NCBI GenBank assembly: GCA_964411135.1
Contig: CAYPJS010000078.1
Coordinates: forward strand, 111,495-175,494
Direction of reading: 5' to 3'
Source: an uncultured Anaerolinea sp.
Lineage (GTDB): Bacteria > Chloroflexota > Anaerolineae > Anaerolineales > Anaerolineaceae
DNA length: 64,000 bases
The translations under genes were made by a program, and so were the position numbers. Positions 1-9,516 of the stretch are shown in pieces (positions within the stretch are counted from its first letter, which is position 1; each line of letters starts with the position of its first letter). The notes beneath the pieces are model-generated. The model saw only the letters and a list, made by a program, of their open reading frames with translations, did no database searches and was not told the DNA's origin.

Positions 1-600
1 GGCCATAACAATTTCAACAATACTCTCTTCATCCGAGAAGGGTAAACTTTCGCGGTGAAGGATCTTGGCAGCCTGGTCGGCGAAATAATACACCTGAGTC
101 AATCTGTCGCTCAACTGCGTGTGGGAATCAAAACCTAATACCAGGATGCCTACCGGCTCGGTATCGATCCGCATTGGAAATAAAAAAAGGTTGTCGTTCG
201 GGGAAACCCTCAAGACAGCCTGCTGTTCGTAATTTAGAGGTGAAATATGCTGGTCAATGTAGGTAGGTTCATCCGCCAGGATGACACGCTGTAACAGATC
301 CTGGGTGCGATAATGATCGCGGGAAGCCGCGGGACGCAGCGAACCTGTTTTGTACAGTCCGCTGGAGGCCTGAACCCTGAAAGTGCCCCCTTGAGCCAGC
401 ACCAAAATCTGGCACTGCTTTACTTTTAATACTTCGACTACTTTCACAGCCAGTTGATTTAATAAACTAGATGACCCCTCGTAGCTGAACAGGTGCTCGG
501 AAGTCTCGCCAACCTCCACCAAATGTTCAACTGAAGGAGTAAACAGCGGCCGTGATGTCCGCTGTGATTCACCTAATAAACCAGAGCTACCAGATAACAT
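1..600 (-). CDS. GAF-domain signalling protein, N-terminal part only (runs off window start; possibly GAF + HD-GYP)
   Basis: Not in ORF track. Manual translation from ATG at 600 is open to base 1: MLSGSSGLLGESQRTSRPLF...LLNQLAVKVVEVLKVKQCQILVL...NLFLFPMRIDTEPVGILVLG...YFADQAAKILHRESLPFSDEESIVEIVMA. 'LFPMRIDTEPVGILVL...ADQAA' is GAF-like. HD-GYP continuation is inference only. Confidence 0.75.
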   Translation of the reverse strand, partial: MLSGSSGLLGESQRTSRPLFTPSVEHLVEVGETSEHLFSYEGSSSLLNQLAVKVVEVLKVKQCQILVLAQGGTFRVQASSGLYKTGSLRPAASRDHYRTQDLLQRVILADEPTYIDQHISPLNYEQQAVLRVSPNDNLFLFPMRIDTEPVGILVLGFDSHTQLSDRLTQVYYFADQAAKILHRESLPFSDEESIVEIVMA

Positions 601-680
601 GTAAATATTCCTAAAACCCTAATCTCGTTATGAAAGAAAACGCAATAAATGGATGTAAATTATGTCAGTGTGCACAATTC

Positions 681-971
681 TCAGTCGGCGGCGATGGCTG
701 ACATTCCCATTCGGGGAGATTTCATTGCGACATTGAGCTGGGAGGCAAAATCGGCCAGAGAGGTTGCGCGGATAGCGGTCAGGCGATTGCGGTCTTCGTT
801 TTCCAACAGGAATTTCTCGCCGGCAAAACCTACGGACACTGCCATGCCTGGATTGGAGAGCAATAATTGGCGGAATTGTGAGCTGACCACAGCTGCTGAA
901 AGGATCCGGCCATATTCGCGAGTGACATCCTGCTGACGGTTATTCGGACGGGCGAAGATTGTTTGAGACAT
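681..971 (-). CDS. Small protein (96 aa) resembling NHLP-leader (Os1348/Franean1_4349-like) proteins
   Basis: ATG at 971 preceded by AGGAG (minus strand AGGAGAATCAAAATG). 'YGRILSAAVVSSQFRQLLLSNPGMAVSVGFAGEKFLLENEDRNRL' matches the 'II.RA..D.eFR..Ll.nP..al..y.Lt.eE' pattern. Confidence 0.65.
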   Translation of the reverse strand: MSQTIFARPNNRQQDVTREYGRILSAAVVSSQFRQLLLSNPGMAVSVGFAGEKFLLENEDRNRLTAIRATSLADFASQLNVAMKSPRMGMSAIAAD

Positions 972-1557
972 TTTGATTCTCCTGTAAGGTTGAAACGCGC
1001 TCTCTGCCACCGATGGACCACAAAAGCCAGAAGGCACCCAGGGCAATCAGGATGTCGCCGATGGAAAAAGCGACTTTATACGACCAGCCCGCGGGAGTAT
1101 GGATAAAGTCCGAGAGGAACCAAAGGGTGGTGTCCTCTATCAGTAGGACGATATCCTTGCCGTAGCCTAACCGTTCACCCACCTGCCAGGAGTCTGCTGA
1201 ACCTGGCACCAGCCATTCAACGGTTTCGGGACTGATCGGCATCCATCCGCCATTCAAACTGATTACCAGCAGGTTCAGCAGCAAGCCAGTTCCCAGCACC
1301 AAAAAACCAGGGGTTCGGATGTTGGCTGCCACGAAAATGAGGAGCGCAAGTTGTGAAAGTACCAAAATCAATCGGATACCGAGTTCAGGTATGCTTGACC
1401 GCGTCAGTGGAAATGAAAATGCTAACCACTGGGCGGTTATTGCCAAAAATACAAGCCATACGAGTCGCAAAGGGTACGGCTGATAGGACCGTTTGTTTAC
1501 CGCCGCCCGGAGGGTTCCCCCCAGGAGACCGGCGGCGACACCAATAAGTAAAATCAT
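940..1557 (-). CDS. DUF5317-type integral membrane protein; putative signal peptidase II-like aspartic peptidase
   Basis: Multiple hydrophobic helices; motifs LNLLVISLNGGWMP, FLSDFI and FSIGDILIALG characteristic of DUF5317 and alignable to LspA GN..DR..G / VDFI / FNVAD. Confidence 0.75.
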   Translation of the reverse strand: MILLIGVAAGLLGGTLRAAVNKRSYQPYPLRLVWLVFLAITAQWLAFSFPLTRSSIPELGIRLILVLSQLALLIFVAANIRTPGFLVLGTGLLLNLLVISLNGGWMPISPETVEWLVPGSADSWQVGERLGYGKDIVLLIEDTTLWFLSDFIHTPAGWSYKVAFSIGDILIALGAFWLLWSIGGRERVSTLQENQNVSNNLRPSE

Positions 1558-1570
1558 CTAGGCTGGATGA

Positions 1571-1708
1571 TTAGAAACCGATCCCGAAAATCTGGATTTT
1601 TTCGATTACACCACCACCAGCAGAAGGAGCACCAGAGCCGATAACGAACATCGCAACCGTCAGAACGAAGAGGATAATGCGAGCCTTGGAAGCGGATAAT
1701 TTAGCCAT
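1571..1708 (-). CDS. 45-aa signal-peptide-like precursor peptide MAKLSASKARIILFVLTVAMFVIGSGAPSAGGGVIEKIQIFGIGF
   Basis: Below ORF-track length cut-off; translated manually (ATG at 1708, TAA at 1571-1573). RBS-like GGGA upstream (AAAGGGAAATACAAAATG); basic n-region plus 13-residue hydrophobic h-region; ends 13 nt before the DUF5317 start. Confidence 0.8.
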   Translation of the reverse strand: MAKLSASKARIILFVLTVAMFVIGSGAPSAGGGVIEKIQIFGIGF

Positions 1709-1742
1709 TTTGTATTTCCCTTTCAATTTGTGTTTTCAGTTT

Positions 1743-1824
1743 GTTATAGAATTAGTTTACCGAAGGGTAGGCTTCAAAGGTGGCTTCAATAAGGTAGGTT
1801 TTTAAAATTGGTTGAAAATTGGTT
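1743..1824 (-). promoter_or_regulatory. Putative activator-dependent promoter of the peptide operon with direct repeats
   Basis: -10-like TATAAC (minus, 1743-1748) without a good -35 at 17 bp; exact repeat AAAATTGGTT at 1804-1813 and 1815-1824 (11-bp period); GGCTTCAA at 1770-1777 and 1782-1789. Confidence 0.5.
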
Positions 1825-1898
1825 TGATATTAGTATTTTAGAAATGCACTAATCCATTATAAACAAATTGCGTGAAAAAAGGACCTGTGACACAAATT

Positions 1899-4800
1899 CT
1901 AAACTTTTGGATTAACCGTCCGCCGTTCGCGCGTGAGGTTATGAAATAATGTAACCGTTCCCGGGGAAGGCTTGGCATCTAATTCTTCCCGGAGAATTTG
2001 TTTCAATGCATCATACGCCTGGACAACGCCGCTGGTATTTCCCTTGGCTGATTGAGCCCGCATCACAAGGCAGACCATAGGTTCATAAGTCGGGTCAAAA
2101 TTGAGCAGGAGCTGTGATGTGGTGATTACCTGGTCCAGTTCGCCTTGCTGGAGCTGCAATTCTGCCAGCTGCATCATGGCATCCATTGCCATCTGATGAT
2201 AACGTTCCCGTTCTGCAGTAACCCAGTGATCGGACAGTTCGGGCAGGAGATAACCTTTATAAAGCTTCACTGCCGAAGTGAGATACTTAATGCGCTCATT
2301 TATTTTTACTGCACGTCGAGCAGCGGCCAGGTGCTGATTGAAATTTTCATAGTCGGCTTCATAATCCATCCCGCGGTTAAACAGGTAGAGTTCATCCTCA
2401 AATAACACTGCGTCTTTGCCAGCTGCGTGCCTCAAGCGGTAGATCGTATTTTTAAAGCGCAGCTTCAACTCGGAGGGAGTTGAATCTGGCCAGAAGATTT
2501 CACCAATTTCTTCTTTGGTCAAACCCTCAGGGTGCATAAGCAAGAGCAGCAGCAAATCCCGAGCATTTTGAGACATCCACTCGGCCCCGGTAATTGTATG
2601 ATCGCCAATTTTGATTTGAATTTTGCCGAATGTCAGGAAGACCAGCTCTGGCGGAGCCAATCTTACGACCTGCGATTGGCGCCGGATCTGCTTTCGGATA
2701 CCAGGCAGTTTTTGTTCGAAAATCGAAACCTGAGATAAAAGGCCTGAAAATTTCATTGACAGATCTTCAGGAATCGATTTTTGATTTAATGCTTTTTCGA
2801 TACTTCTGCTTTCGGACATCAATAAATGGGTTAATTCTGGATTTTGGATAATGGGTGACAGGTTTTCGAGGATGTGTCGGGTCGAGGTGAATTGTCCAGA
2901 TGCGGCGGTTGCCAATGCCGAAAGGATTCTGCATCGGTTTGCTTCAATATGATGGCCTTCCTGAGCAAAAAATTCCATCGCCTTGCCGAATTCAAAAACG
3001 GCAGTTTCAAAATCATTATTTTCAAAAGCAATTTTCCCTCGCAACAATCCGCAAAGGTTGACCTGGTAGGGTGAGTTCGCGTCACTCGCCAGAGTCATTG
3101 CATCTTCAAGGGCTTCTTCAGCTTTCCGGATAGATTTTCGACCCAGGGCGAGGTCAGCATTGGTGTACTGCAGATAAAAGTGGAGGAATTGATCATCAAT
3201 TTGCCGGTCAATTTCAGCAGCCTTGGCGTAGGCATCCTCAGCCTCCCGCATTGATTTCAAATCGCGGAAAAGGTCTCCCAGACTGGTCAGGGCATAGGCT
3301 TCCAGGCGTTGATATCCCCCCAACCGGGCGTATTGGATGGACTGCTCAAACTCGAAAAAAGCTTTCTCATACTCGCCAACCAAAAAATGAACCACCCCGA
3401 CGTTATTGAGTAAATTGGCCTGCCAAACCACATTCCCGGTTGATTGATAATACGCAAGGACATCCAGATATGTTTGCTCAGCTTCCGCGAATCTTCCCAG
3501 GTACTGCAAATCCCCGCCGATGTCCAGGGCAACTTTTGTTGCGCCTTGTTCATGGCCTGCGTTTTGATAAAGGACCCTGGCTTTTTGCAGCCAATCGAGG
3601 GCATCCACCAGTTTCCCCGATTGGTACAAGGCGGATCCTTTCGCGTGGTAGGCACCAGCGAGAAGAGAACTCAATGAGGTCCCATCCGATAAACGGATAG
3701 CTTCCTCTGCATCCTCCAATGCCTGCTGGAGGTTTCCCGCCAAACGGAAAGCGGTAGAACGTCTCACATGGGTAATAACTGCGATTTCATTGTCAGGCCG
3801 CACTTTCAACAAAGCTAGAGCTTTGCCTGTGAACTGAATACCAGCCTTTGGATCACCCAGCATCATCATCACCGCGCCGTAGATGGATAAAATGATGGCG
3901 GATTCATCCACCAATAACGTCGGTAATTTCTCCAACCAGTCATGAACTGTCAGGAGCCGCCCCTGGGTAATCATGAATTGACCTGCTCGCTCGATCAACC
4001 GTGCGGTCAACTCTTTATCACCAATCCGTTCACAGACCTGATAAGCCCGCTCCCAATCCAATTGTTCCTGGAAATACTCAGCCAATTTAAAGAGGATTAA
4101 TCTTGTTTCATCCGGGTAAAGCCGGCTCATCTGTGCCTGTAAAAAGTCTCTGAACAGATGATGGTATCTCAGCCAGATCCGATCCTCGATCACAGGTAAG
4201 GTAAATAGATTATTGCGCTGGACTGTATCCATTAGCATTTGCCAGTCCGCAGTCATATTGAGGGCAGCCCCAATCACCTTTTCGCACCTGTCAACATCGA
4301 ACTCGTCCAATAGCGAAGATCGGAATAGGAAAAGCTTAACCTCATCAGTTTGATGCTCTAAAACCTGCTGGGCTAGGTAATCGTAGAGGCTGACGCCTGC
4401 CACATGTTTTGCCTGGAAACGTGTGGTCACGCGCCCATTCTTAATTTCGGTCGAGAGCACCAGACCTGTGATCCAACCTTCGGTGAGCGCTGCCAGGTTG
4501 GAAGCATCCGCCTCATTCAGGATGATGCGATGGTTCTGCAGATAAAGGGATTGGATTTCTTCCATCCGGAAGGCCAGGTCTTCGAACCCCAATCCGCCCA
4601 CGGTTGATCGGGCTACCAGCAGGGGCATATCGGAAAGCGGAAGCAGCCTTCTGGAAGAGATGACCATGTGGCAGTTTTCATCGACCATCATCAGGAACCG
4701 GTTGATGAAATAGTTGATATCCTGGGTATCTTCTACCAGATGGTAGTCATCCAGGACGAAGAGGAAGTGCTCGGTTATGGTTTCATAAATATCATTGACA

Positions 4801-5162
4801 ACCAGAGACACCAGCGCATCCAGATTTAATCGTGCCTGCGACATTCCCTGCAAGGCTGGCATGCAGCTCTTACCAAATTCAGGGAAGACGGCATTCATGG
4901 ACGCAATGAAATGGGCAATAAAGCGTTGAGGATCTTTGTCCAGGTCATCCAATGCCAGCCAACACACAGGCTGCAAGGTTTGATTCACAAAGTCAACCAG
5001 TAAGGAGGTTTTTCCATACCCGGCCGGCGCCGCAACGATGATCAGGCGGTTATCGATAGACTCTTCAAGCACACTTAACAATCGTGGCCTTGAGAGTAAT
5101 TCTCCTCGCCGGCGAGGGATTATTAATTTGGTTCGTGTGATCGGAATTGAGATATCCATCAT
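1899..5162 (-). CDS. MalT-like STAND NTPase-TPR transcriptional regulator with C-terminal OmpR-type wHTH and BTAD domain
   Basis: N-terminal TKLIIP..R..LLSRPRL; Walker A APAGYGKT; Walker B FVLDDYH; WLRYHHLFRDFL; TPR repeats; 'LTFGKIQI...ARDLLLLLL...IFWPD...FKNTIYRLR' wHTH; 'LYKGYLLPE...WV..ERE...DPTYE' BTAD. Confidence 0.9.
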   Translation of the reverse strand: MMDISIPITRTKLIIPRRRGELLSRPRLLSVLEESIDNRLIIVAAPAGYGKTSLLVDFVNQTLQPVCWLALDDLDKDPQRFIAHFIASMNAVFPEFGKSCMPALQGMSQARLNLDALVSLVVNDIYETITEHFLFVLDDYHLVEDTQDINYFINRFLMMVDENCHMVISSRRLLPLSDMPLLVARSTVGGLGFEDLAFRMEEIQSLYLQNHRIILNEADASNLAALTEGWITGLVLSTEIKNGRVTTRFQAKHVAGVSLYDYLAQQVLEHQTDEVKLFLFRSSLLDEFDVDRCEKVIGAALNMTADWQMLMDTVQRNNLFTLPVIEDRIWLRYHHLFRDFLQAQMSRLYPDETRLILFKLAEYFQEQLDWERAYQVCERIGDKELTARLIERAGQFMITQGRLLTVHDWLEKLPTLLVDESAIILSIYGAVMMMLGDPKAGIQFTGKALALLKVRPDNEIAVITHVRRSTAFRLAGNLQQALEDAEEAIRLSDGTSLSSLLAGAYHAKGSALYQSGKLVDALDWLQKARVLYQNAGHEQGATKVALDIGGDLQYLGRFAEAEQTYLDVLAYYQSTGNVVWQANLLNNVGVVHFLVGEYEKAFFEFEQSIQYARLGGYQRLEAYALTSLGDLFRDLKSMREAEDAYAKAAEIDRQIDDQFLHFYLQYTNADLALGRKSIRKAEEALEDAMTLASDANSPYQVNLCGLLRGKIAFENNDFETAVFEFGKAMEFFAQEGHHIEANRCRILSALATAASGQFTSTRHILENLSPIIQNPELTHLLMSESRSIEKALNQKSIPEDLSMKFSGLLSQVSIFEQKLPGIRKQIRRQSQVVRLAPPELVFLTFGKIQIKIGDHTITGAEWMSQNARDLLLLLLMHPEGLTKEEIGEIFWPDSTPSELKLRFKNTIYRLRHAAGKDAVLFEDELYLFNRGMDYEADYENFNQHLAAARRAVKINERIKYLTSAVKLYKGYLLPELSDHWVTAERERYHQMAMDAMMQLAELQLQQGELDQVITTSQLLLNFDPTYEPMVCLVMRAQSAKGNTSGVVQAYDALKQILREELDAKPSPGTVTLFHNLTRERRTVNPKV

Positions 5163-5421: not shown

Positions 5422-6414
5422 ATGGAATATAAATTCTTGGGGCAGACCGGGGTCAAGGTATCGCAGCTATGTTTCGGCACCATGACCTTCGGCGACGAAG
5501 CCGATGAGGAAATGTCAGCCCAAATGTATAAGCGCTGCCGGGACGCGGGCATCAATTTTTTTGATTGCGCAAATATGTATTCAACGGGGCGTGCAGAAAG
5601 CATACTTGGCAAGTTAATTGAAGGCCAGCGCGAGGAAGTTGTCATTACCTCCAAGGCATATTTCCCGATGGATCAGGACCCAAATGCGCGCGGTGCCTCC
5701 AGGTATCATATTTTTAATTCGGTTAATGCAAGTTTGCGGCGTTTAAATACAGACCGTATCGATGTGTTCTTTATCCACCGTTTTGACGAATATACCGGTA
5801 TGGAAGAAACCTTGCGGGCTTTGGATGACCTGGTCCGCATGGGAAAAATCCTTTATCCGGCAGCCAGCAATTACGCAGCCTGGCAGATAATGAAATCCCT
5901 TGGGATAGCAGATATCCATAATTGGACCCGCTTCTCTGTGATCCAACCGATGTACAACCTGGTAAAGCGTACAGCAGAGGTCGAAATTTTACCCATGGCT
6001 GAGTCAGAAAACCTGGGTGTCATTCCGTATTCTCCTCTGGGTGGCGGTCTCCTTTCCGGAAAATATGCTGGCGGAACCAAACCTGAACAAGGGCGACTGA
6101 TCCGCAGTCTGCGCTATAAAACCCGGTACCAGGAAGGATGGATGCACAAGACCGCCGAAAATCTCAAATCCTTTGCGGAGAAGCTTGGTGTCCATCCCGC
6201 TTCGCTTGCAATTGCCTGGGTTGGGGCCAATCCGGCAGTTACTGCTCCCATAATTGGAGCCCGAAACCTTGACCATCTCGAAACTGCCTTGCGGTCTGTG
6301 GATATCGATATGACGGATGAACTCTACGAACAGGTTACGGCATTATCCCCAACACCGGCTCCGGCAACTGACCGGAACGAAGAGCGTTTGGTCGACACGT
6401 ATGGTCCACGGTAA
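5422..6414 (+). CDS. Aldo/keto reductase
   Basis: LGQTGVKVSQLCFGTMTFG, GINFFDCANMY, SLRRLNTDRID, PYSPLGGGLL, PIIGAR motifs; RBS GAGGAGG. Confidence 0.95.
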   Translation: MEYKFLGQTGVKVSQLCFGTMTFGDEADEEMSAQMYKRCRDAGINFFDCANMYSTGRAESILGKLIEGQREEVVITSKAYFPMDQDPNARGASRYHIFNSVNASLRRLNTDRIDVFFIHRFDEYTGMEETLRALDDLVRMGKILYPAASNYAAWQIMKSLGIADIHNWTRFSVIQPMYNLVKRTAEVEILPMAESENLGVIPYSPLGGGLLSGKYAGGTKPEQGRLIRSLRYKTRYQEGWMHKTAENLKSFAEKLGVHPASLAIAWVGANPAVTAPIIGARNLDHLETALRSVDIDMTDELYEQVTALSPTPAPATDRNEERLVDTYGPR

Positions 6415-6453
6415 GAACACTCACCTGTTTCAGGGTATTGGAGCGTTCATCAG

Positions 6454-8316
6454 ATGGTAGAAATCAGGCCGATAACCGAGATTCGTCCAAAGATAAGCAG
6501 CGAATTCGACCTGGGTGAGTTCGTTCCCCGCACCGAGGCTATCGCCCATGCTTATAGGCTTGGCAAGCAATTGCATGGCGGTCAATTGCGGATGAGTGGT
6601 GAACCTTACTTCGATACGCACTGCGTCTGGGTGGGCGGTTTTCTGGACAAGCTGGTGCAAAACGAAGCCTGGACTATTGCAGGCTTACTGCATGATAGTG
6701 TTGAAGACAGGGGTGAATCACTCGAAAAAATAAAATCCGCCTTTCCTGGCATGCTTGGAGAAGAGGTGGCGTTTATTGTCGACGGCGTAACCAAGATCAG
6801 CAATCCACGGGATGGACGCTCGCGCGAAATTGAAACCTTGCGGAAAATTGCTCAATTCCGCGATCCAGGTGTATTCCTGGTCAAACTTGCCGACAAGAGT
6901 CACAACTTAATGACCCTGGAACACATGCCGGTTGAAAAGGGCCGCCAGAAGGCGACCGAAGCGATACGGGCTTATGGAAAACTGGCGGGAATCTTAAATT
7001 GCTACCGGTGGCGATGCTGGATCGAGGACCTGGCTTTTCCCTTTGCCGAACCGGAAACCTACCAATATGTCCGGTCGCAGATTGACGCCGACCCTAGGTT
7101 GGATACCCGGTTCATTAACCAGATGATGGAGCAGTTGGGTTCTCTCATGGAGAAGGCGGGCATCGACGGACGGGTTGATCTGGTTGTAAATGGTTATTGG
7201 CAGACCTGGCAGAAATTACGCCGGCTGGCGCGAGCCCGAAAAACCTCGATGAATAGTTTTAAAAACATTAATGACTTGATCAGCTTCCGTATGGTCGTGG
7301 CGAGTGATGATCCTACCCAATGCTACAGCCTGCTCCCGCATGTGAACCGTTACCTTGGCGCCTACCTGGATCAAAACAGCTTTGATGACTACATAGCATG
7401 CCCTCAGAACCGTTACCGGGCCTTGCAAATAACTGCCTGGATCCCTGATCGGGGAGCCGTAGAGGTGGCGATAGCCACTGAAGATATGGAAGGCGAAAAC
7501 AACTGGGGAGTGATCCATGCCATCAAAAGAGGGAAAGATATTTCCTCATATTCTCCAGTGGAAATCCTGACGCCGACAGGCGGCGCCCGATTCTTACCAG
7601 AAGGATCTACTGTCCTGGACGCGGTCGCATCAATCCAGCAAGAACTCCTGCTGGATAAAATCAGTTCGGTCAAAGTCAATGGTAGCCTGGCAAGGTTATC
7701 GGACCGTGTTCACCCTGGAGATGTCGTGGAAGTAGTCACAGGCAGCGGGAGACTGATTCCCAATGAGGAGTGGTTAACTTTTGCCAACCCATCGACGGCG
7801 CGGCTCTTGCGCTCAGTGCTGGTTACAGAAGCGTTAAAAAAATCCGCCGAATCTGGCCGTCAAATAATCAAACCAGCTCTGGCTCAGAGGGGAATCCTTG
7901 CGCTAGAGGACGTACAAGCGCTCGAACCTGACCGCTTTGACAACCTTCTCGAGCAACTCGCCTGCGCTTCACTCGAAGATTTGTATGCATCACTCGGCTC
8001 AGGGGCAGTCCGGTTGATTGATTTGGAAAAAGCACTCGATGGGGCCGGAATCGCTGCCCAAGTATTAAATTGGACTACCGTGAATTTTATCGGCACGCAA
8101 GAATCGAACAGGCCGGGGGTTCTGGCACGTCTGGCTTCTTTAATTTCACAGGTTCAGGGCAACATATTGAGATCTGTAAACAATACTCTGCCGTACGGAG
8201 GCTTCTACCTGCGTTTGGTCATTGGAAATCTGACCGCTGAAAACCGGATCGAACTGCGAAAGGCCTTTGAGGAATCCGGAGTCGAATTGGAATCGTTGGA
8301 TATTGCTGGGGTTTGA
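6454..8316 (+). CDS. Long RelA/SpoT homolog (HD hydrolase, degenerate synthetase, TGS, helical, ACT)
   Basis: HGGQLRMSGEPY, LLHDSVED, VDGVTKI, VKLADKSHN; DLISFR, DDYIACP, EVAIAT; TGS LPEGSTVLD...VKVNG; ACT NRPGVLARL. Confidence 0.92.
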   Translation: MVEIRPITEIRPKISSEFDLGEFVPRTEAIAHAYRLGKQLHGGQLRMSGEPYFDTHCVWVGGFLDKLVQNEAWTIAGLLHDSVEDRGESLEKIKSAFPGMLGEEVAFIVDGVTKISNPRDGRSREIETLRKIAQFRDPGVFLVKLADKSHNLMTLEHMPVEKGRQKATEAIRAYGKLAGILNCYRWRCWIEDLAFPFAEPETYQYVRSQIDADPRLDTRFINQMMEQLGSLMEKAGIDGRVDLVVNGYWQTWQKLRRLARARKTSMNSFKNINDLISFRMVVASDDPTQCYSLLPHVNRYLGAYLDQNSFDDYIACPQNRYRALQITAWIPDRGAVEVAIATEDMEGENNWGVIHAIKRGKDISSYSPVEILTPTGGARFLPEGSTVLDAVASIQQELLLDKISSVKVNGSLARLSDRVHPGDVVEVVTGSGRLIPNEEWLTFANPSTARLLRSVLVTEALKKSAESGRQIIKPALAQRGILALEDVQALEPDRFDNLLEQLACASLEDLYASLGSGAVRLIDLEKALDGAGIAAQVLNWTTVNFIGTQESNRPGVLARLASLISQVQGNILRSVNNTLPYGGFYLRLVIGNLTAENRIELRKAFEESGVELESLDIAGV

Positions 8317-8318
8317 AC

Positions 8319-8819
8319 ATGTTGATTGCGGTAATAAGTGACACCCATAACCGTGTTGAAACACTGCAGGCTGCAATTGACTATGTAATTTCGAGACAAA
8401 TTGAGAATATTTTTCACTGCGGTGATGTAACCAATCTTGAAACCGCCCGCCTGCTGGGTGGATTAAATGTCCACTTTGTCTATGGCAATGGAGATTCAGA
8501 CGCTCAAGCAATCACTGAATTTTTGACGTCTATGAATCCAAAGGCCACCGGCGGGCCTATTTTTTCAGGTCAGCTTGCCGGGAAAACCATCGGGGCAACG
8601 CACAGCCATATTACAGGTGTATTAAATTCATTGATTACAGACGGCACCTACGATTATGTTTTTCATGGGCATACCCATATTCAAAGAAATCAGAAAATCG
8701 GAAGGACGAGAGTTATCAATCCTGGCGCGTTGGGTAGTTCTCGGTATAACGGGCAGACCTTATGCGTTCTTGACCTGGAAACCGATCAAGCCGAGTTTCC
8801 AGAATTCGAAGGGGTATAA
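8319..8819 (+). CDS. YfcE-family metallophosphoesterase
   Basis: ISDTH, HCGD, VYGNGD, HSH, HGHTH, INPGA calcineurin-like motifs; ATG at 8319 chosen over TTG 8313. Confidence 0.92.
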   Translation: MLIAVISDTHNRVETLQAAIDYVISRQIENIFHCGDVTNLETARLLGGLNVHFVYGNGDSDAQAITEFLTSMNPKATGGPIFSGQLAGKTIGATHSHITGVLNSLITDGTYDYVFHGHTHIQRNQKIGRTRVINPGALGSSRYNGQTLCVLDLETDQAEFPEFEGV

Positions 8820-8868
8820 CCCCTTTTTAAGGTTAATCACAATGGAACGAATAAGATATAATTTTCAT

Positions 8869-9516
8869 ATGGATGATCGCCCAACTCCTCTCGTCATTGC
8901 CATTGCTGGCGGTTCAGGCTCAGGGAAAACTACTGTAGCCAATGAAATCTTAAAACAGGTTGGCTCGCACCGCATTGCTTATTTACCGCATGACGCCTAT
9001 TATCGGGACCTGACCGATTTACCTTTGAACCAACGCGCTGAAGTAAACTTTGACCACCCCAACTCACTCGAATCCAGTCTGTTGATTGAGCATATTCGAA
9101 AACTAAAACGGTGGGAGCCGGTCGATTTACCGATATATGACTTCACGCACCATAGAAGAACTGGTGAGACTCGGCGAGTCGAGCCCTCAATGGTCATAAT
9201 CGTTGAAGGAATTTTGATCTACGCCGAACCAGAACTTCGCGAAGAATTCGATGTAAAGATCTTCGTAGACACTGATTCGGATTTGCGGTTTATCAGGCGA
9301 CTTGAGCGAGACATTACTGAACGCGGGCGAACCACAGAAACGGTCGTTCGCCAGTACCTGACCACCGTTCGTCCAATGCACATGGATTTTGTAGAGCCGT
9401 CAAAACGTTATGCGGATGTCATAATTCCAGAAGGCGGCTTTAATACCGTTGCCCTCGACATGGTCATTTCCCGCATCGAGTCGCTGCTGCATACCAATCT
9501 TCAAGGCACTAAATGA
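8869..9516 (+). CDS. udk: Uridine kinase
   Basis: IAIAGGSGSGKTT, HDAYY, NFDHP, LPIYDF, EGIL, RRLERD, PSKRYADVIIPEG; start moved to ATG 8869 (8842 also possible). Confidence 0.95.
   Translation: MDDRPTPLVIAIAGGSGSGKTTVANEILKQVGSHRIAYLPHDAYYRDLTDLPLNQRAEVNFDHPNSLESSLLIEHIRKLKRWEPVDLPIYDFTHHRRTGETRRVEPSMVIIVEGILIYAEPELREEFDVKIFVDTDSDLRFIRRLERDITERGRTTETVVRQYLTTVRPMHMDFVEPSKRYADVIIPEGGFNTVALDMVISRIESLLHTNLQGTK

Follow-up and report, generated by a model that had tools for sequence, protein, structure and literature searches.

A conserved Anaerolineae gene cassette as a candidate peptide-linked signalling module of a GA-box peptide, DUF5317, and an HD-GYP phosphodiesterase

The described systems closest to the locus reported here are the Gram-positive pheromone systems (RRNPP(A), Agr, and ComQXPA), LspA (peptidase A8), the large SARP/AfsR-type and MalT-type STAND regulators, the NHLP/Nif11/Frankia_peptide (LigA-like) RiPP leaders, and the DSF system of Xanthomonas. 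In the last of these, RpfC-RpfG signalling combines a fatty-acid signal, a hybrid kinase sensor, and a phosphorylated REC-HD-GYP protein. SARPs typically target secondary-metabolite clusters, and their promoters carry direct repeats just upstream of the −10 element, without an evident −35 (PMC10936776). Among the leader families, PF14407 is grouped in ECOD with NHase-alpha, Nif11, and ComX (PMC12353581). Our literature search found no paper describing the cassette analyzed below.

The window is a 64,000-nt stretch of DNA from an uncultured Anaerolinea sp., and the cassette lies at its start. An earlier note had placed five co-oriented genes there, and the window sequence gave all five on the minus strand in those places: a regulator, a tiny membrane peptide, the membrane protein DUF5317, a small NHLP-like protein, and a c-di-GMP-degrading enzyme. 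The spacings also agreed, with 190 nt between regulator and peptide, 13 nt between peptide and DUF5317, and a 32-nt overlap of DUF5317 with the NHLP-like gene. In a survey of 80 Anaerolineae genomes (80 species; denominators vary by gene position), a 31–60 aa peptide stood immediately upstream of DUF5317 in 69/75 loci, at a median distance of 12 nt, and the regulator lay upstream in 56 of the 61 loci with enough flank. An NHLP-clan gene followed DUF5317 in 75/77 loci. The next gene was an HD-GYP phosphodiesterase in 45/59 loci (HD_5 search of co-directional downstream genes) and a non-HD-GYP gene in the other 14. One exceptional locus (L085) kept DUF5317 and the NHLP-like gene, with the regulator and peptide absent nearby. 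The cassette occupied a conserved chromosomal position throughout the class and was not patchy; the cultured species Bellilinea caldifistulae, Pelolinea submarina, and Anaerolinea thermophila are among its carriers. The neighbourhood survey called for in the earlier note thus found an adjacent peptide and a conserved gene order, the opposites of which it had named as evidence against its reading. By these comparisons the cassette is a conserved unit across Anaerolineae, and its core of peptide, DUF5317, and HD-GYP enzyme is common to a second phylum. These findings make the cassette, which is real and conserved, a good candidate for a peptide-linked signalling module not yet described, and one unrelated to LspA.

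The peptide gene (1571–1708, minus strand) encodes 45 aa from its ATG, MAKLSASKARIILFVLTVAMFVIGSGAPSAGGGVIEKIQIFGIGF, with a basic N-terminus, a single hydrophobic helix, a GSGA-P box, and an 18-aa Gly-rich tail with an aromatic end. The Anaerolineae consensus is similar, with a basic N-terminus, one hydrophobic helix, a [GAS][AGS]GA-P box, and a Gly-rich tail of 5–18 aa. The Pro right after the GA box was invariant in Anaerolineae, and the tail differed between lineages while the box was fixed. The peptide is built like one that is exported or inserted into the membrane and keeps a short tail outside. Pfam and NCBIfam searches gave no family matching the peptide, and an orthologue was called by gene callers. 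The signal-peptide-like reading frame of the earlier note proved to be a true one: small-ORF homologues carrying the motif adjoined DUF5317 in 83/90 sources, against 5 off-target matches in a six-frame translation of ~1.2 Mb, an arrangement far beyond chance. Some genomes carried up to seven near-identical peptide genes, and in L036, L054, and L058 tandem copies alternated with NHLP-like genes. The seven paralogues in L058 differed pairwise by 95 synonymous and 6 nonsynonymous codon changes, which shows purifying selection on the peptide. That the locus is a set of unrelated neighbours with a spurious small ORF is a negligible prospect, refuted by this selection together with the conserved order, motif, and promoter architecture across two phyla; the comparative data rule it out.

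The regulator (1899–5162, minus strand; 1087 aa) was assigned by profile matches as a STAND-SARP protein, with an N-terminal MalT-like NTPase and winged-helix domain, a TPR sensor region, and a C-terminal SARP module. The MalT model NF003420 matched residues 10–529 (E 6e-58), the TPR matches were to TPR_12 and TPR_MalT (49.4 bits), and BTAD matched residues 937–1075 with 87.8 bits. Pfam Trans_reg_C gave no match on residues 830–945, so the putative OmpR-type DNA-binding domain, which would form the SARP module together with BTAD, draws its one line of support from the AfsR model, aligned with residues 835–1077.

The 190-nt gap from the regulator stop to the peptide ATG (1709–1898, minus strand) holds two direct repeats. 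The first, TGAAGCC-ACCTT-TGAAGCC (1770–1788, minus; TGAAGCC-N5-TGAAGCC), has period 12 and would be where the SARP module binds. A −10-like hexamer, TAAACT (1754–1759, minus), follows the 3' repeat at a distance of 10 nt and would serve as the promoter element. The second repeat, ACCAATTTT x2 (1804–1824, minus), has period 11 and lies upstream of the first; only the closest relatives retained part of it. The TGAAGCC box was found at the same place in 38/82 loci, mostly 47–75 nt before the first peptide start. Period-12 runs of at least 7 nt occurred in 53/79 upstream regions, compared with 0.8 in shuffles and 2/69 coding controls. In the alignment the hexamer was kept as TAAACT, TACACT, or TAGAAT, and other lineages showed period-12 repeats of different sequence with GATAAT, CATAAT, or TATACT ~10 nt past the last repeat. 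The repeats kept period and position while their sequence was lineage-specific, which matches SARP promoter logic (PMC10936776) and is what a SARP-type activator site should show. Classical SARP sites have a period of 11 or 22 and stand 8 nt from the −10; in the cassette the period is 12 and the −10 lies 10 nt away. Operon activation through the repeats, as the earlier note supposed, is well backed by this comparison of period, fixed distance from the peptide gene, hexamer, and lineage-specific sequence.

DUF5317 (940–1557, minus strand; 205 aa; PF17248 115.5 bits) starts 13 nt after the peptide stop and has five predicted helices, with a conserved loop (102–165) predicted to face outward. Among the positions kept in at least 95% of 444 homologues are Q43, N79, N95, N102, G103, G104, M106, P107, D150, S165, G167, and D168. 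Loops 1 and 3 are K/R-rich; this positive-inside pattern and the invariant polar residues fit the proposed topology. A Foldseek search of the AF2 model (pLDDT 85) against the PDB gave no fold match, with no LspA chain among the hits, and a sequence search against solved structures detected neither a match nor a relative of known function. The LspA-like peptidase label, an interpretation in the earlier note, is therefore rejected: hhalign gave a probability of 3.9% over a 21-column motif only. In the lack of such a relative or fold, ‘peptidase’ and ‘receptor’ are both guesses from the conserved residues.

The gene of the NHLP-clan (Os1348/Frankia_peptide-like) protein (681–971, minus strand; 96 aa) shares 32 nt with that of DUF5317. 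The window copy scored below cut-off (PF14407 17.2 bits, NF038399 20.7 bits), and its orthologues matched NF038399 in 35/36 cases (best 6e-12) and PF14407 in 30/36. A 60-aa core was conserved, the C-terminal tail was variable or absent, and orthologue comparison found no Gly-Gly site in the tails. In one natural fusion (P0142), the NHLP domain is joined to the cytoplasmic end of DUF5317. A role as a precursor was not borne out by these tails and this fusion; the translational coupling to DUF5317, and the one case of fusion to its cytoplasmic end, make an adaptor more likely. The locus might instead be a ribosomal natural-product or bacteriocin cluster, in which the peptides, the NHLP-like protein, or both would be precursors, DUF5317 would provide maturation or immunity, and the SARP-type regulator would be the cluster-situated activator. 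The NHLP clan and PF14407 are classed among RiPP precursors, the tandem peptide arrays alternate with NHLP-like genes, and secondary-metabolite clusters typically stand under SARPs (PMC10936776). However, the called-gene tables of 12 examined loci contained no modifying enzyme (radical SAM, cyclodehydratase, ATP-grasp, or lanthionine synthetase) and no C39-peptidase ABC exporter, and the NHLP-like tails were variable or absent, with no Gly-Gly site. A mature part of 5–9 aa is also too short for a membrane-active bacteriocin, and the class-wide synteny and the linkage to HD-GYP, kinases, and response regulators make this reading very improbable.

The last gene (1–600, minus strand) is cut by the window edge, leaving the GAF-like N-terminal 200 aa of a GAF-HD-GYP c-di-GMP phosphodiesterase. 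The GAF matches were weak (E 0.004–0.02, below gathering). Full-length orthologues in L001 and L081 have 386 aa, with GAF-like and HD-GYP parts (HD_5 134 bits; HHERYDGSGYP motif). The earlier ‘GAF protein’ is the start of an HD-GYP phosphodiesterase, which had been missed.

Distant DUF5317 proteins (34–41% identity) showed the same gene order, the last gene being a response regulator, a histidine kinase, or PAS-GAF-HD-GYP. In Bipolaricaulota, the genes for a small peptide, a membrane HD-GYP protein, and DUF5317 formed a triad whose members overlapped or abutted; neither the regulator nor an NHLP-like gene was found at these loci. The peptide there resembles the GA-box peptide (…L[LM]SGA[YTSN][DH]KWG…; …LSGA-xDKWGG). 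This cross-phylum core points to c-di-GMP as the module output, not to a loop closed through the regulator alone. A quorum-sensing-like loop was the reading of the earlier note; in its closed form, a fragment cleaved by DUF5317 would accumulate outside, re-enter, bind the regulator TPRs, and autoinduce the operon in RRNPP-like fashion. A signal-peptide-like peptide with a very short mature part beside a TPR-containing regulator, the variable tail behind a fixed box, and oligopeptide-permease-like genes within 5 kb of the triad in 3/4 Bipolaricaulota loci speak for it. We nevertheless consider it unlikely. The regulator cannot be the universal sensor, as the Bipolaricaulota core exists without it; permease genes lay near the Anaerolineae cassette in only 1/80 loci, ~5 kb off; the TGAAGCC box was single in the window, with none upstream of the regulator gene; and the NHLP-like protein and the HD-GYP enzyme would be left without a role.

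We tentatively propose, as the best of several possible readings, that the STAND-SARP regulator turns on a module of peptide and DUF5317 that is linked with c-di-GMP turnover. This proposal keeps the conserved unit and the activation through repeats from the earlier reading, drops its LspA likeness, and does not take the NHLP-like protein for a precursor. It starts from the genes, their conservation, the repeats, and the purifying selection on the peptide, all of which the analysis showed. A ligand at the NTPase-TPR part would activate the regulator, which would bind the period-12 repeats standing in for a −35 element and switch on the four-gene operon (peptide, DUF5317, NHLP-like, GAF-HD-GYP). 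The peptide would insert with its basic N-terminus inside, so that the invariant GA-P box comes to lie at the outer boundary of the membrane and the short Gly-rich tail beyond it. DUF5317 would recognize the box, and its invariant N102, D150, S165, and D168 are predicted to lie at the same boundary. In the preferred version, DUF5317 would cleave as a new two-aspartate membrane peptidase unrelated to LspA, releasing an 18-aa peptide in the window and a 5–9-aa peptide in most relatives; binding without cleavage is nearly as likely. In the cytoplasm, DUF5317 would be coupled to the HD-GYP phosphodiesterase, via the NHLP-like protein in Anaerolineae, as suggested by the gene coupling, the fusion, and the Bipolaricaulota triad, and the peptide/DUF5317 state would then set c-di-GMP breakdown. 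Up to seven near-identical peptide genes suggest a bulk product, which is unusual for a signal. Further points counted against the proposal are the L085 exception, the non-classical repeat spacing, the OmpR-type domain undetected by Pfam, and the 14/59 non-HD-GYP loci.

Small membrane proteins are known to tune sensor kinases, as MgrB and SafA do with PhoQ, and Pro at +1 blocks signal peptidase I. The peptide could likewise stay uncleaved and carry no signal between cells, as a small permanent component or modulator of a complex of DUF5317 with HD-GYP; this would make the cassette a cell-autonomous regulator of the envelope or of c-di-GMP. The invariant Pro agrees with an anchor that is not cleaved, tight translational coupling suggests a fixed stoichiometry, the identical multi-copy genes suggest a product needed in quantity, and no protease fold was seen in DUF5317. 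We find this rather doubtful. Against it, the Asp, Asn, and Ser residues invariant across two phyla look more like a catalytic or very specific binding site than like a helix-packing surface, and a fixed box with tails that diverge between lineages is what one usually sees where a processing site precedes a variable product.

Returning to the tentatively preferred coupling to c-di-GMP, the cassette resembles the Gram-positive pheromone systems in that its putative precursor is very small, with an N-terminus like a signal peptide and a short variable C-terminus, in that the peptide gene adjoins those of a membrane protein and of a transcription factor with TPRs, and in that the operon stands under an activator site. 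It differs in having no AgrB, AgrC, ComQ, ComP, or XRE-type HTH-TPR receptor, and its TPRs are part of a STAND NTPase whose C-terminus is a SARP module. Its conserved partner is an HD-GYP enzyme, and its membrane protein is DUF5317.

Similarly to LspA, DUF5317 is small and multi-helical, has two invariant aspartates predicted to lie close to the outer leaflet, and shows a local motif likeness (AFSxGD… compared with TFNLAD…). Its presumed substrate resembles lipobox substrates in the basic N-terminus, hydrophobic helix, and helix-end box L-[GA]-[AS]-G-A. Unlike LspA, DUF5317 has five predicted helices, the fourth and fifth separated by one large loop, and the residue after the box is Pro (or Tyr, Thr, Ser, Asn), not a lipid-modified Cys.

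The regulator shares NTPase, TPR, and SARP (BTAD) domains with the large SARP/AfsR-type and MalT-type STAND regulators, and the promoter shares with SARP targets the direct repeats just upstream of the −10 without an evident −35 (PMC10936776). The cassette departs from these systems in its reversed domain order, with the MalT-like NTPase N-terminal and the SARP module C-terminal, in its occurrence in Chloroflexota, and in a target other than a biosynthetic cluster. The NHLP-like protein resembles the RiPP leaders in its 60-aa core, which matched NF038399 and PF14407 in most orthologues, but it has no conserved core peptide, Gly-Gly cleavage site, or nearby maturase or exporter. As with the cell-to-cell signal of the DSF system, the candidate signalling ends in an HD-GYP c-di-GMP phosphodiesterase; here the N-terminus of the enzyme is GAF-like or of the membrane (MASE9) type, and a peptide takes the place of the fatty acid as the candidate signal.

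The cassette comprises five minus-strand genes. A STAND-type regulator of 1087 aa (1899-5162) is followed, after a 190-nt gap, by a small-peptide ORF of 45 aa (1571-1708). The DUF5317 gene (PF17248; 940-1557) begins 13 nt after the peptide ORF, and the NHLP-like gene (96 aa; 681-971) overlaps it by 32 nt. The fifth gene (1-600) gives weak GAF matches and leaves the window, which holds its first 200 residues only. The earlier note had described these five genes and their spacings, and each distance proved correct on checking. A scan of one genome per species gave 397 DUF5317 relatives, and the best 80 of these loci were analysed; every one of the 80 belonged to Anaerolineae or other Chloroflexota. 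Together with 12 further contexts, they form the comparison set, the members of which are phylogenetically related. The neighbourhood survey suggested in the earlier note was run by tblastn with the five window proteins, counting loci with sufficient flank. The regulator lay immediately upstream of DUF5317 in 56/61 loci, the small peptide immediately upstream in 69/75, and the NHLP-like gene immediately downstream in 75/77, so the gene order is conserved. Of the six loci missing the upstream peptide, four have downstream peptide arrays (L036, L054, L057, and L058), one (L043) has the variant box VGGAP, and one (L056) is frameshifted. Loci with distant DUF5317 proteins (34-41% identity) kept the order of regulator, 41-64-aa ORF, DUF5317, and NHLP-like/Frankia_peptide protein; the last gene differed and encoded a response regulator, a kinase, or a PAS-GAF-HD-GYP protein. 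The genes of the cassette almost certainly form one functional unit.

On the plus strand (5422-9516), divergent from the regulator gene, the window carries an aldo-keto reductase (5422-6414), a 620-aa RelA/SpoT-family protein (6454-8316), a metallophosphoesterase (8313-8819), and then a uridine-kinase-like gene. The aldo-keto reductase, RelA/SpoT, and metallophosphoesterase block also flanks the cassette of a Bellilinea genome (L081), which places the locus in stable chromosomal synteny. A different arrangement was seen at locus L085 (6001-10936), where DUF5317 overlaps an NHLP-like gene of 141 aa. Very large signalling proteins with multiple GAF domains come next, and neither a regulator nor a recognisable peptide was found on the upstream side.

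The window peptide, MAKLSASKARIILFVLTVAMFVIGSGAPSAGGGVIEKIQIFGIGF, reads PSAGGGVIEKIQIFGIGF from Pro27 onward. All members of the family share one build: an N-terminus that is basic and varies in length, a single hydrophobic helix of ~18-20 residues, a near-invariant [GAS][AGS]GA box followed by proline, and a Gly-rich tail. The tail has 8-9 residues with the pattern x-x-x-G-x-[VI]-G-x in most lineages, and 17-18 residues with an aromatic at the end in the window's clade. A search with the motif found the peptide in 83/90 sources, with five off-target matches in ~1.2 Mb of six-frame translation. Neither Pfam nor NCBIfam has a model for the family, and gene callers called the 45-aa orthologue in the Bellilinea genome (L081). 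Seven paralogues of Pelolinea submarina differ pairwise by 95 synonymous and 6 nonsynonymous codon differences. By these comparisons, the peptide is translated and under selection.

The charge distribution and the positive-inside rule suggest that the peptide has its N-terminus inside and its tail on the outer side, which would put the box at the outer membrane boundary. A proline directly after an A-x-A-like site blocks signal peptidase I. The invariant proline after the box thus suggests that a dedicated enzyme does the processing or that the peptide is not cleaved at all; the second would suit a rival model in which the peptide stays uncleaved and serves as a small subunit.

One subclade has a rearranged cassette, seen in the complete genome of Pelolinea submarina (L058 8585-10363) and in two further loci (L036 8540-10125 and L054 8584-9771). 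There the order is repeat box, DUF5317, NHLP-like gene, peptide array, second NHLP-like gene, and more peptide genes. No regulator lies upstream, and the near-identical peptide genes number up to seven. The arrays are followed by a MinD/ParA-type P-loop ATPase of 203-206 aa with weak Pfam matches, which we take to resemble the ATPase of polysaccharide co-polymerases (BY-kinase-type). In L056 (7780-8000), from a long-read metagenome assembly, a frameshift splits the peptide gene; MKTLSAKLSQLVARRDTRVVVFVLTIAMY… resumes in another frame as …IIISAGAPDASGGVGL, probably through an assembly error.

In the regulator, residues 10-529 matched the MalT model NF003420 (E 6e-58, 196 bits). As this score falls below the equivalog cut-off of 537 bits, the protein is to be classed as a relative of MalT and not as MalT itself. 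The middle part carries TPR_12 and TPR_MalT repeats (TPR_MalT 49.4 bits, cut-off 45), and WHD_MalT was detected in the orthologues. BTAD (PF03704) covers residues 937-1075 with 87.8 bits, compared with a cut-off of 22.1. Positions 24-266 of the AfsR model, its SARP part, align with residues 835-1077; the putative OmpR-type DNA-binding domain is placed by this alignment, and a Pfam search of residues 830-945 found no such domain. From its domain matches, the regulator is a genuine relative of both MalT and the SARPs, with the domain order reversed. Extra STAND-SARP paralogues stand beside the cassette in some genomes (L020 3-2930 and 4460-7684; L054 10899-13553; L070 7111-8718, minus strand), indicating that the regulator family has expanded in Anaerolineae.

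A candidate site for the SARP module is the direct repeat TGAAGCC-ACCTT-TGAAGCC (1770-1788, minus strand), which has a period of 12. A −10-like hexamer, TAAACT (1754-1759, minus strand), lies ten nt downstream of the repeat, and the peptide starts 61 nt downstream of the TGAAGCC box. Transcription is predicted to begin ~7 nt past TAAACT, close to position 1747. In the window by itself the repeat is not significant (41/100 shuffles match at ≤1 mismatch), and its weight comes solely from positional conservation across loci. The exact TGAAGCC pattern occupies the same position in 38/82 loci. Lineages without TGAAGCC have other repeats of 12-nt period (TGCATCC, TGGTGAG, CTGTCCCC, AAGAGGC, and CGTTCATAGGTA) in two to five copies, each ~10 nt ahead of a TAnnnT hexamer. 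An exact period-12 run of at least 7 nt was found in 53/79 upstream regions, compared with 0.8 expected from shuffles and 2/69 coding controls. A repeat whose sequence shifts while its period and position stay constant is what co-evolution with a DNA-binding domain would be expected to produce. A scan for consensus promoters and terminators gave nothing exceeding shuffles. In the peptide arrays the box precedes the first peptide gene only, so the copies are presumably co-transcribed. A second direct repeat, two copies of ACCAATTTT (1804-1824, minus strand), has an 11-nt period, lies ~15 nt upstream of the TGAAGCC box, and is kept in the closest relatives only; its role may be that of a second site or an UP-like element. 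In SARP promoters, direct repeats have an 11- or 22-bp period, overlap the −35, and leave 8 bp between the 3′ repeat and the −10 (PMC10936776). The window repeat, with its period of 12 and a distance of 10 to the −10-like hexamer, is alike in logic but different in geometry.

The window DUF5317 protein scored 115.5 bits with PF17248 (cut-off 25), covering 149/151 profile positions. An AlphaFold2 model from 16 sequences (pLDDT 85, pTM 0.77) has five long helices, with residues 102-165 forming a structured loop. Across 444 homologues, Lys and Arg abound in loops 1 and 3, so the large loop is placed on the outside. Q43, N79, N95, N102-G-G, M106-P107, D150, S165, G167, and D168 are among the positions that at least 95% of these homologues share, and both D150 and D168 are invariant; the topology suggests that the invariant residues cluster in space. 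This family, which has no characterised member, is a large one, with 3,493 clusters at 50% identity (E ≤0.001). Our literature search found no paper mentioning DUF5317 or PF17248, a census of HD-GYP proteins does not mention DUF5317, and searches on Anaerolineae, Chloroflexi, peptide signalling, and HD-GYP returned nothing relevant.

DUF5317 had earlier been called LspA-like, a description that the sequence and structure comparisons do not bear out. A profile search of all PDB sequences gave no LspA at E ≤10 and no solved structure matching DUF5317 by sequence. The LspA fold has four helices and a periplasmic β-cradle; Foldseek of the pLDDT-85 model against PDB returned 11 matches, all with E >4, and none of the 11 was LspA, FlaK, or presenilin. 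Direct alignment with E. coli LspA by hhalign reached 3.9% probability over 21 columns, in which AFSIGDILIALGAFWLL aligned with TFNLADTAICVGAALIVL; this 21-residue resemblance was probably the source of the description. The substrates differ as well, since the LspA lipobox has Cys at +1, whereas here Pro follows the box in Anaerolineae, and Bipolaricaulota have Tyr, Thr, Ser, or Asn at that position. An attractive analogy with LspA, not a homology, would be a pair of invariant outer-leaflet aspartates that act on the small-residue box where a signal-anchor helix ends. We regard a peptidase function of DUF5317 as possible but lean towards doubting it. Natural fusions of the peptide with DUF5317 were also sought, and the DUF5317 proteins of the representative library that extend further at the N-terminus resemble miscalled starts rather than fusions.

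The NHLP-like protein of the window scored below the cut-offs of both relevant models (NF038399, 20.7 bits, cut-off 40; PF14407, 17.2 bits, cut-off 48). As 35/36 orthologues match NF038399 (best 6e-12) and 30/36 match PF14407 at E ≤0.01, membership in the NHLP clan is a reasonable assignment by profile. ECOD groups PF14407 with nitrile hydratase alpha, Nif11, ComX, and LigA (PMC12353581). The profile of the family gave non-significant matches only against PDB (nitrile hydratase alpha, E 1.4), and a single-sequence model was unusable (pLDDT 57). The conserved part is a 60-residue core. About half of the proteins end in …[AC][AG]D (AIAAD, AVCGD, TAAD, CAGD, GIGD), as in the window (681-725, minus strand), and the rest terminate directly after the core. 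At L058 8585-8815 in Pelolinea, the first NHLP-like ORF past DUF5317 is unrelated until its last dozen residues (…SLADFARQLANT) and looks frameshifted or decayed; the second copy (L058 9609-9857) is intact.

An NHLP-type protein beside a small peptide would suit a RiPP or bacteriocin locus, in which the small peptides, the NHLP-like protein, or both would be precursors. The NHLP-like protein does not look like one, because its C-terminal tail is variable (0 to >20 aa, not conserved, absent in many) and has no Gly-Gly site, its gene overlaps DUF5317, and neither a maturase nor a C39-peptidase ABC exporter was found among the genes called at the 12 loci with Pfam marks. A protein of the representative library (P0142, 304 aa) argues the same way: DUF5317 occupies residues 1-183, and an NHLP-like domain at the C-terminus is joined to the predicted cytoplasmic end of DUF5317. 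Either P0142 is naturally fused, or the two overlapping genes were run together by a frameshift in the assembly. We read the NHLP-like protein as a putative cytoplasmic partner of DUF5317.

The fifth gene had been described as a GAF protein. Its full-length orthologues are GAF-like plus HD-GYP. The window copy stops before the HD_5 domain, and the HD-GYP assignment comes from the orthologues. The orthologue at locus L001 scores 134 bits with HD_5, has intact HDIGK and HHERYDGSGYP motifs, and is a predicted c-di-GMP phosphodiesterase. Among 59 co-directional genes next after the cassette, 45 encode an HD_5/HD-GYP protein; the rest are mostly kinases, PAS proteins, or proteins with a receiver domain.

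The main new result is a core that crosses phyla. A separate DUF5317 clade belongs to Candidatus Bipolaricaulota, where, in four loci, DUF5317 overlaps or abuts the 3′ end of a membrane (MASE9-type) HD-GYP gene, with no regulator and no NHLP-like gene at these loci. An ORF of 44-66 aa lies ~90 nt ahead of the HD-GYP gene in 3/3 loci with upstream sequence and has the build of the Anaerolineae peptide (…FYVLLAILTLLLLSGAYDKWGG, …LIILSAFVLMSGATDKWGG, and …LLTLAALLLLSGASDKWGL). The fourth locus is truncated and ends …LSGANHKWG. The unit common to both phyla is, by gene content, the GA-box peptide, DUF5317, and HD-GYP. Opp-like genes (SBP_bac_5, OppB, OppC) lie within 5 kb of this triad in 3/4 Bipolaricaulota loci (L088 3021-6942; L090 1-3375; L091 8294-10549), in differing orders. 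The link may be inherited synteny, and in Anaerolineae it is absent (1/80 loci).

The cross-phylum core bears on the closed autoinduction loop proposed in the earlier note, in which DUF5317 cleaves the peptide, a product is sensed, and the regulator activates the operon. With the core reduced to peptide, DUF5317, and HD-GYP, the likely output moves from the regulator to c-di-GMP. In the mechanism that we prefer to this loop, the regulator would activate the operon through the direct repeats, and the peptide would insert in the membrane with its box at the outer boundary. DUF5317 would then recognise the box, by cleavage (slightly preferred) or by binding, with the NHLP-like protein as its link to the HD-GYP enzyme; in Bipolaricaulota, this coupling would be direct. 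The comparative sequence data establish the cassette, the peptide family, the promoter architecture, and the HD-GYP link. The whole chain from repeats through peptide and DUF5317 to HD-GYP we put somewhat short of an even chance, and action of the peptide between cells seems rather unlikely. The boldest version we consider unlikely. Here, DUF5317 would be the founder of a new family of membrane peptidases with two aspartates, and its substrate, a GA-box signal-anchor peptide, would be cut at the outer leaflet. The freed peptide of 5-18 residues would be a pheromone, and its reception would be wired to c-di-GMP hydrolysis by HD-GYP, via an NHLP-fold adaptor in Anaerolineae or directly via MASE9-HD-GYP in Bipolaricaulota.

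Anaerolineae are filamentous bacteria that abound in anaerobic digesters, sediments, and activated sludge, where granulation and bulking have been associated with them, and to our knowledge almost nothing is known of their signalling. Across hundreds of species, the cassette brings together a DUF whose predicted fold has no match, a peptide family that lacks annotation, an NHLP-fold protein that stands alone and does not behave as precursors do, a STAND-SARP regulator of reversed domain order whose putative site can be read, and c-di-GMP turnover. If DUF5317 processes or senses the peptide, PF17248 (~3,500 clusters at 50% identity) would gain a function and the NHLP/LigA-like fold a non-RiPP role, and peptide or c-di-GMP control would become genetically accessible in both phyla for the first time. 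If the pheromone reading is true, the cassette would represent a peptide quorum-sensing design with none of the known parts, controlling multicellular behaviour (filaments, aggregation) in two poorly studied phyla.

Compared with known systems, the cassette belongs to none of Agr, RRNPP, ComQXPA, an LspA substrate pair, or an NHLP-RiPP locus, as it lacks some defining features of each. No AgrB-type processing protein or AgrC histidine kinase domain was found in the window genes or the neighbours examined. As in RRNPP(A) systems, a small propeptide gene stands beside a candidate receptor; the 45-aa ORF 190 nt downstream of the regulator is conserved, and its export is predicted. The RRNPP(A) receptor combines an XRE-type HTH (or a phosphatase) with TPRs, whereas here a STAND NTPase, TPR, and SARP take its place. 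By analogy, its closest counterpart in mode of working would be a Gram-positive peptide-signal module, here with a c-di-GMP output attached, and the gene content of the cassette points to peptide-linked signalling built from uncharacterised parts.
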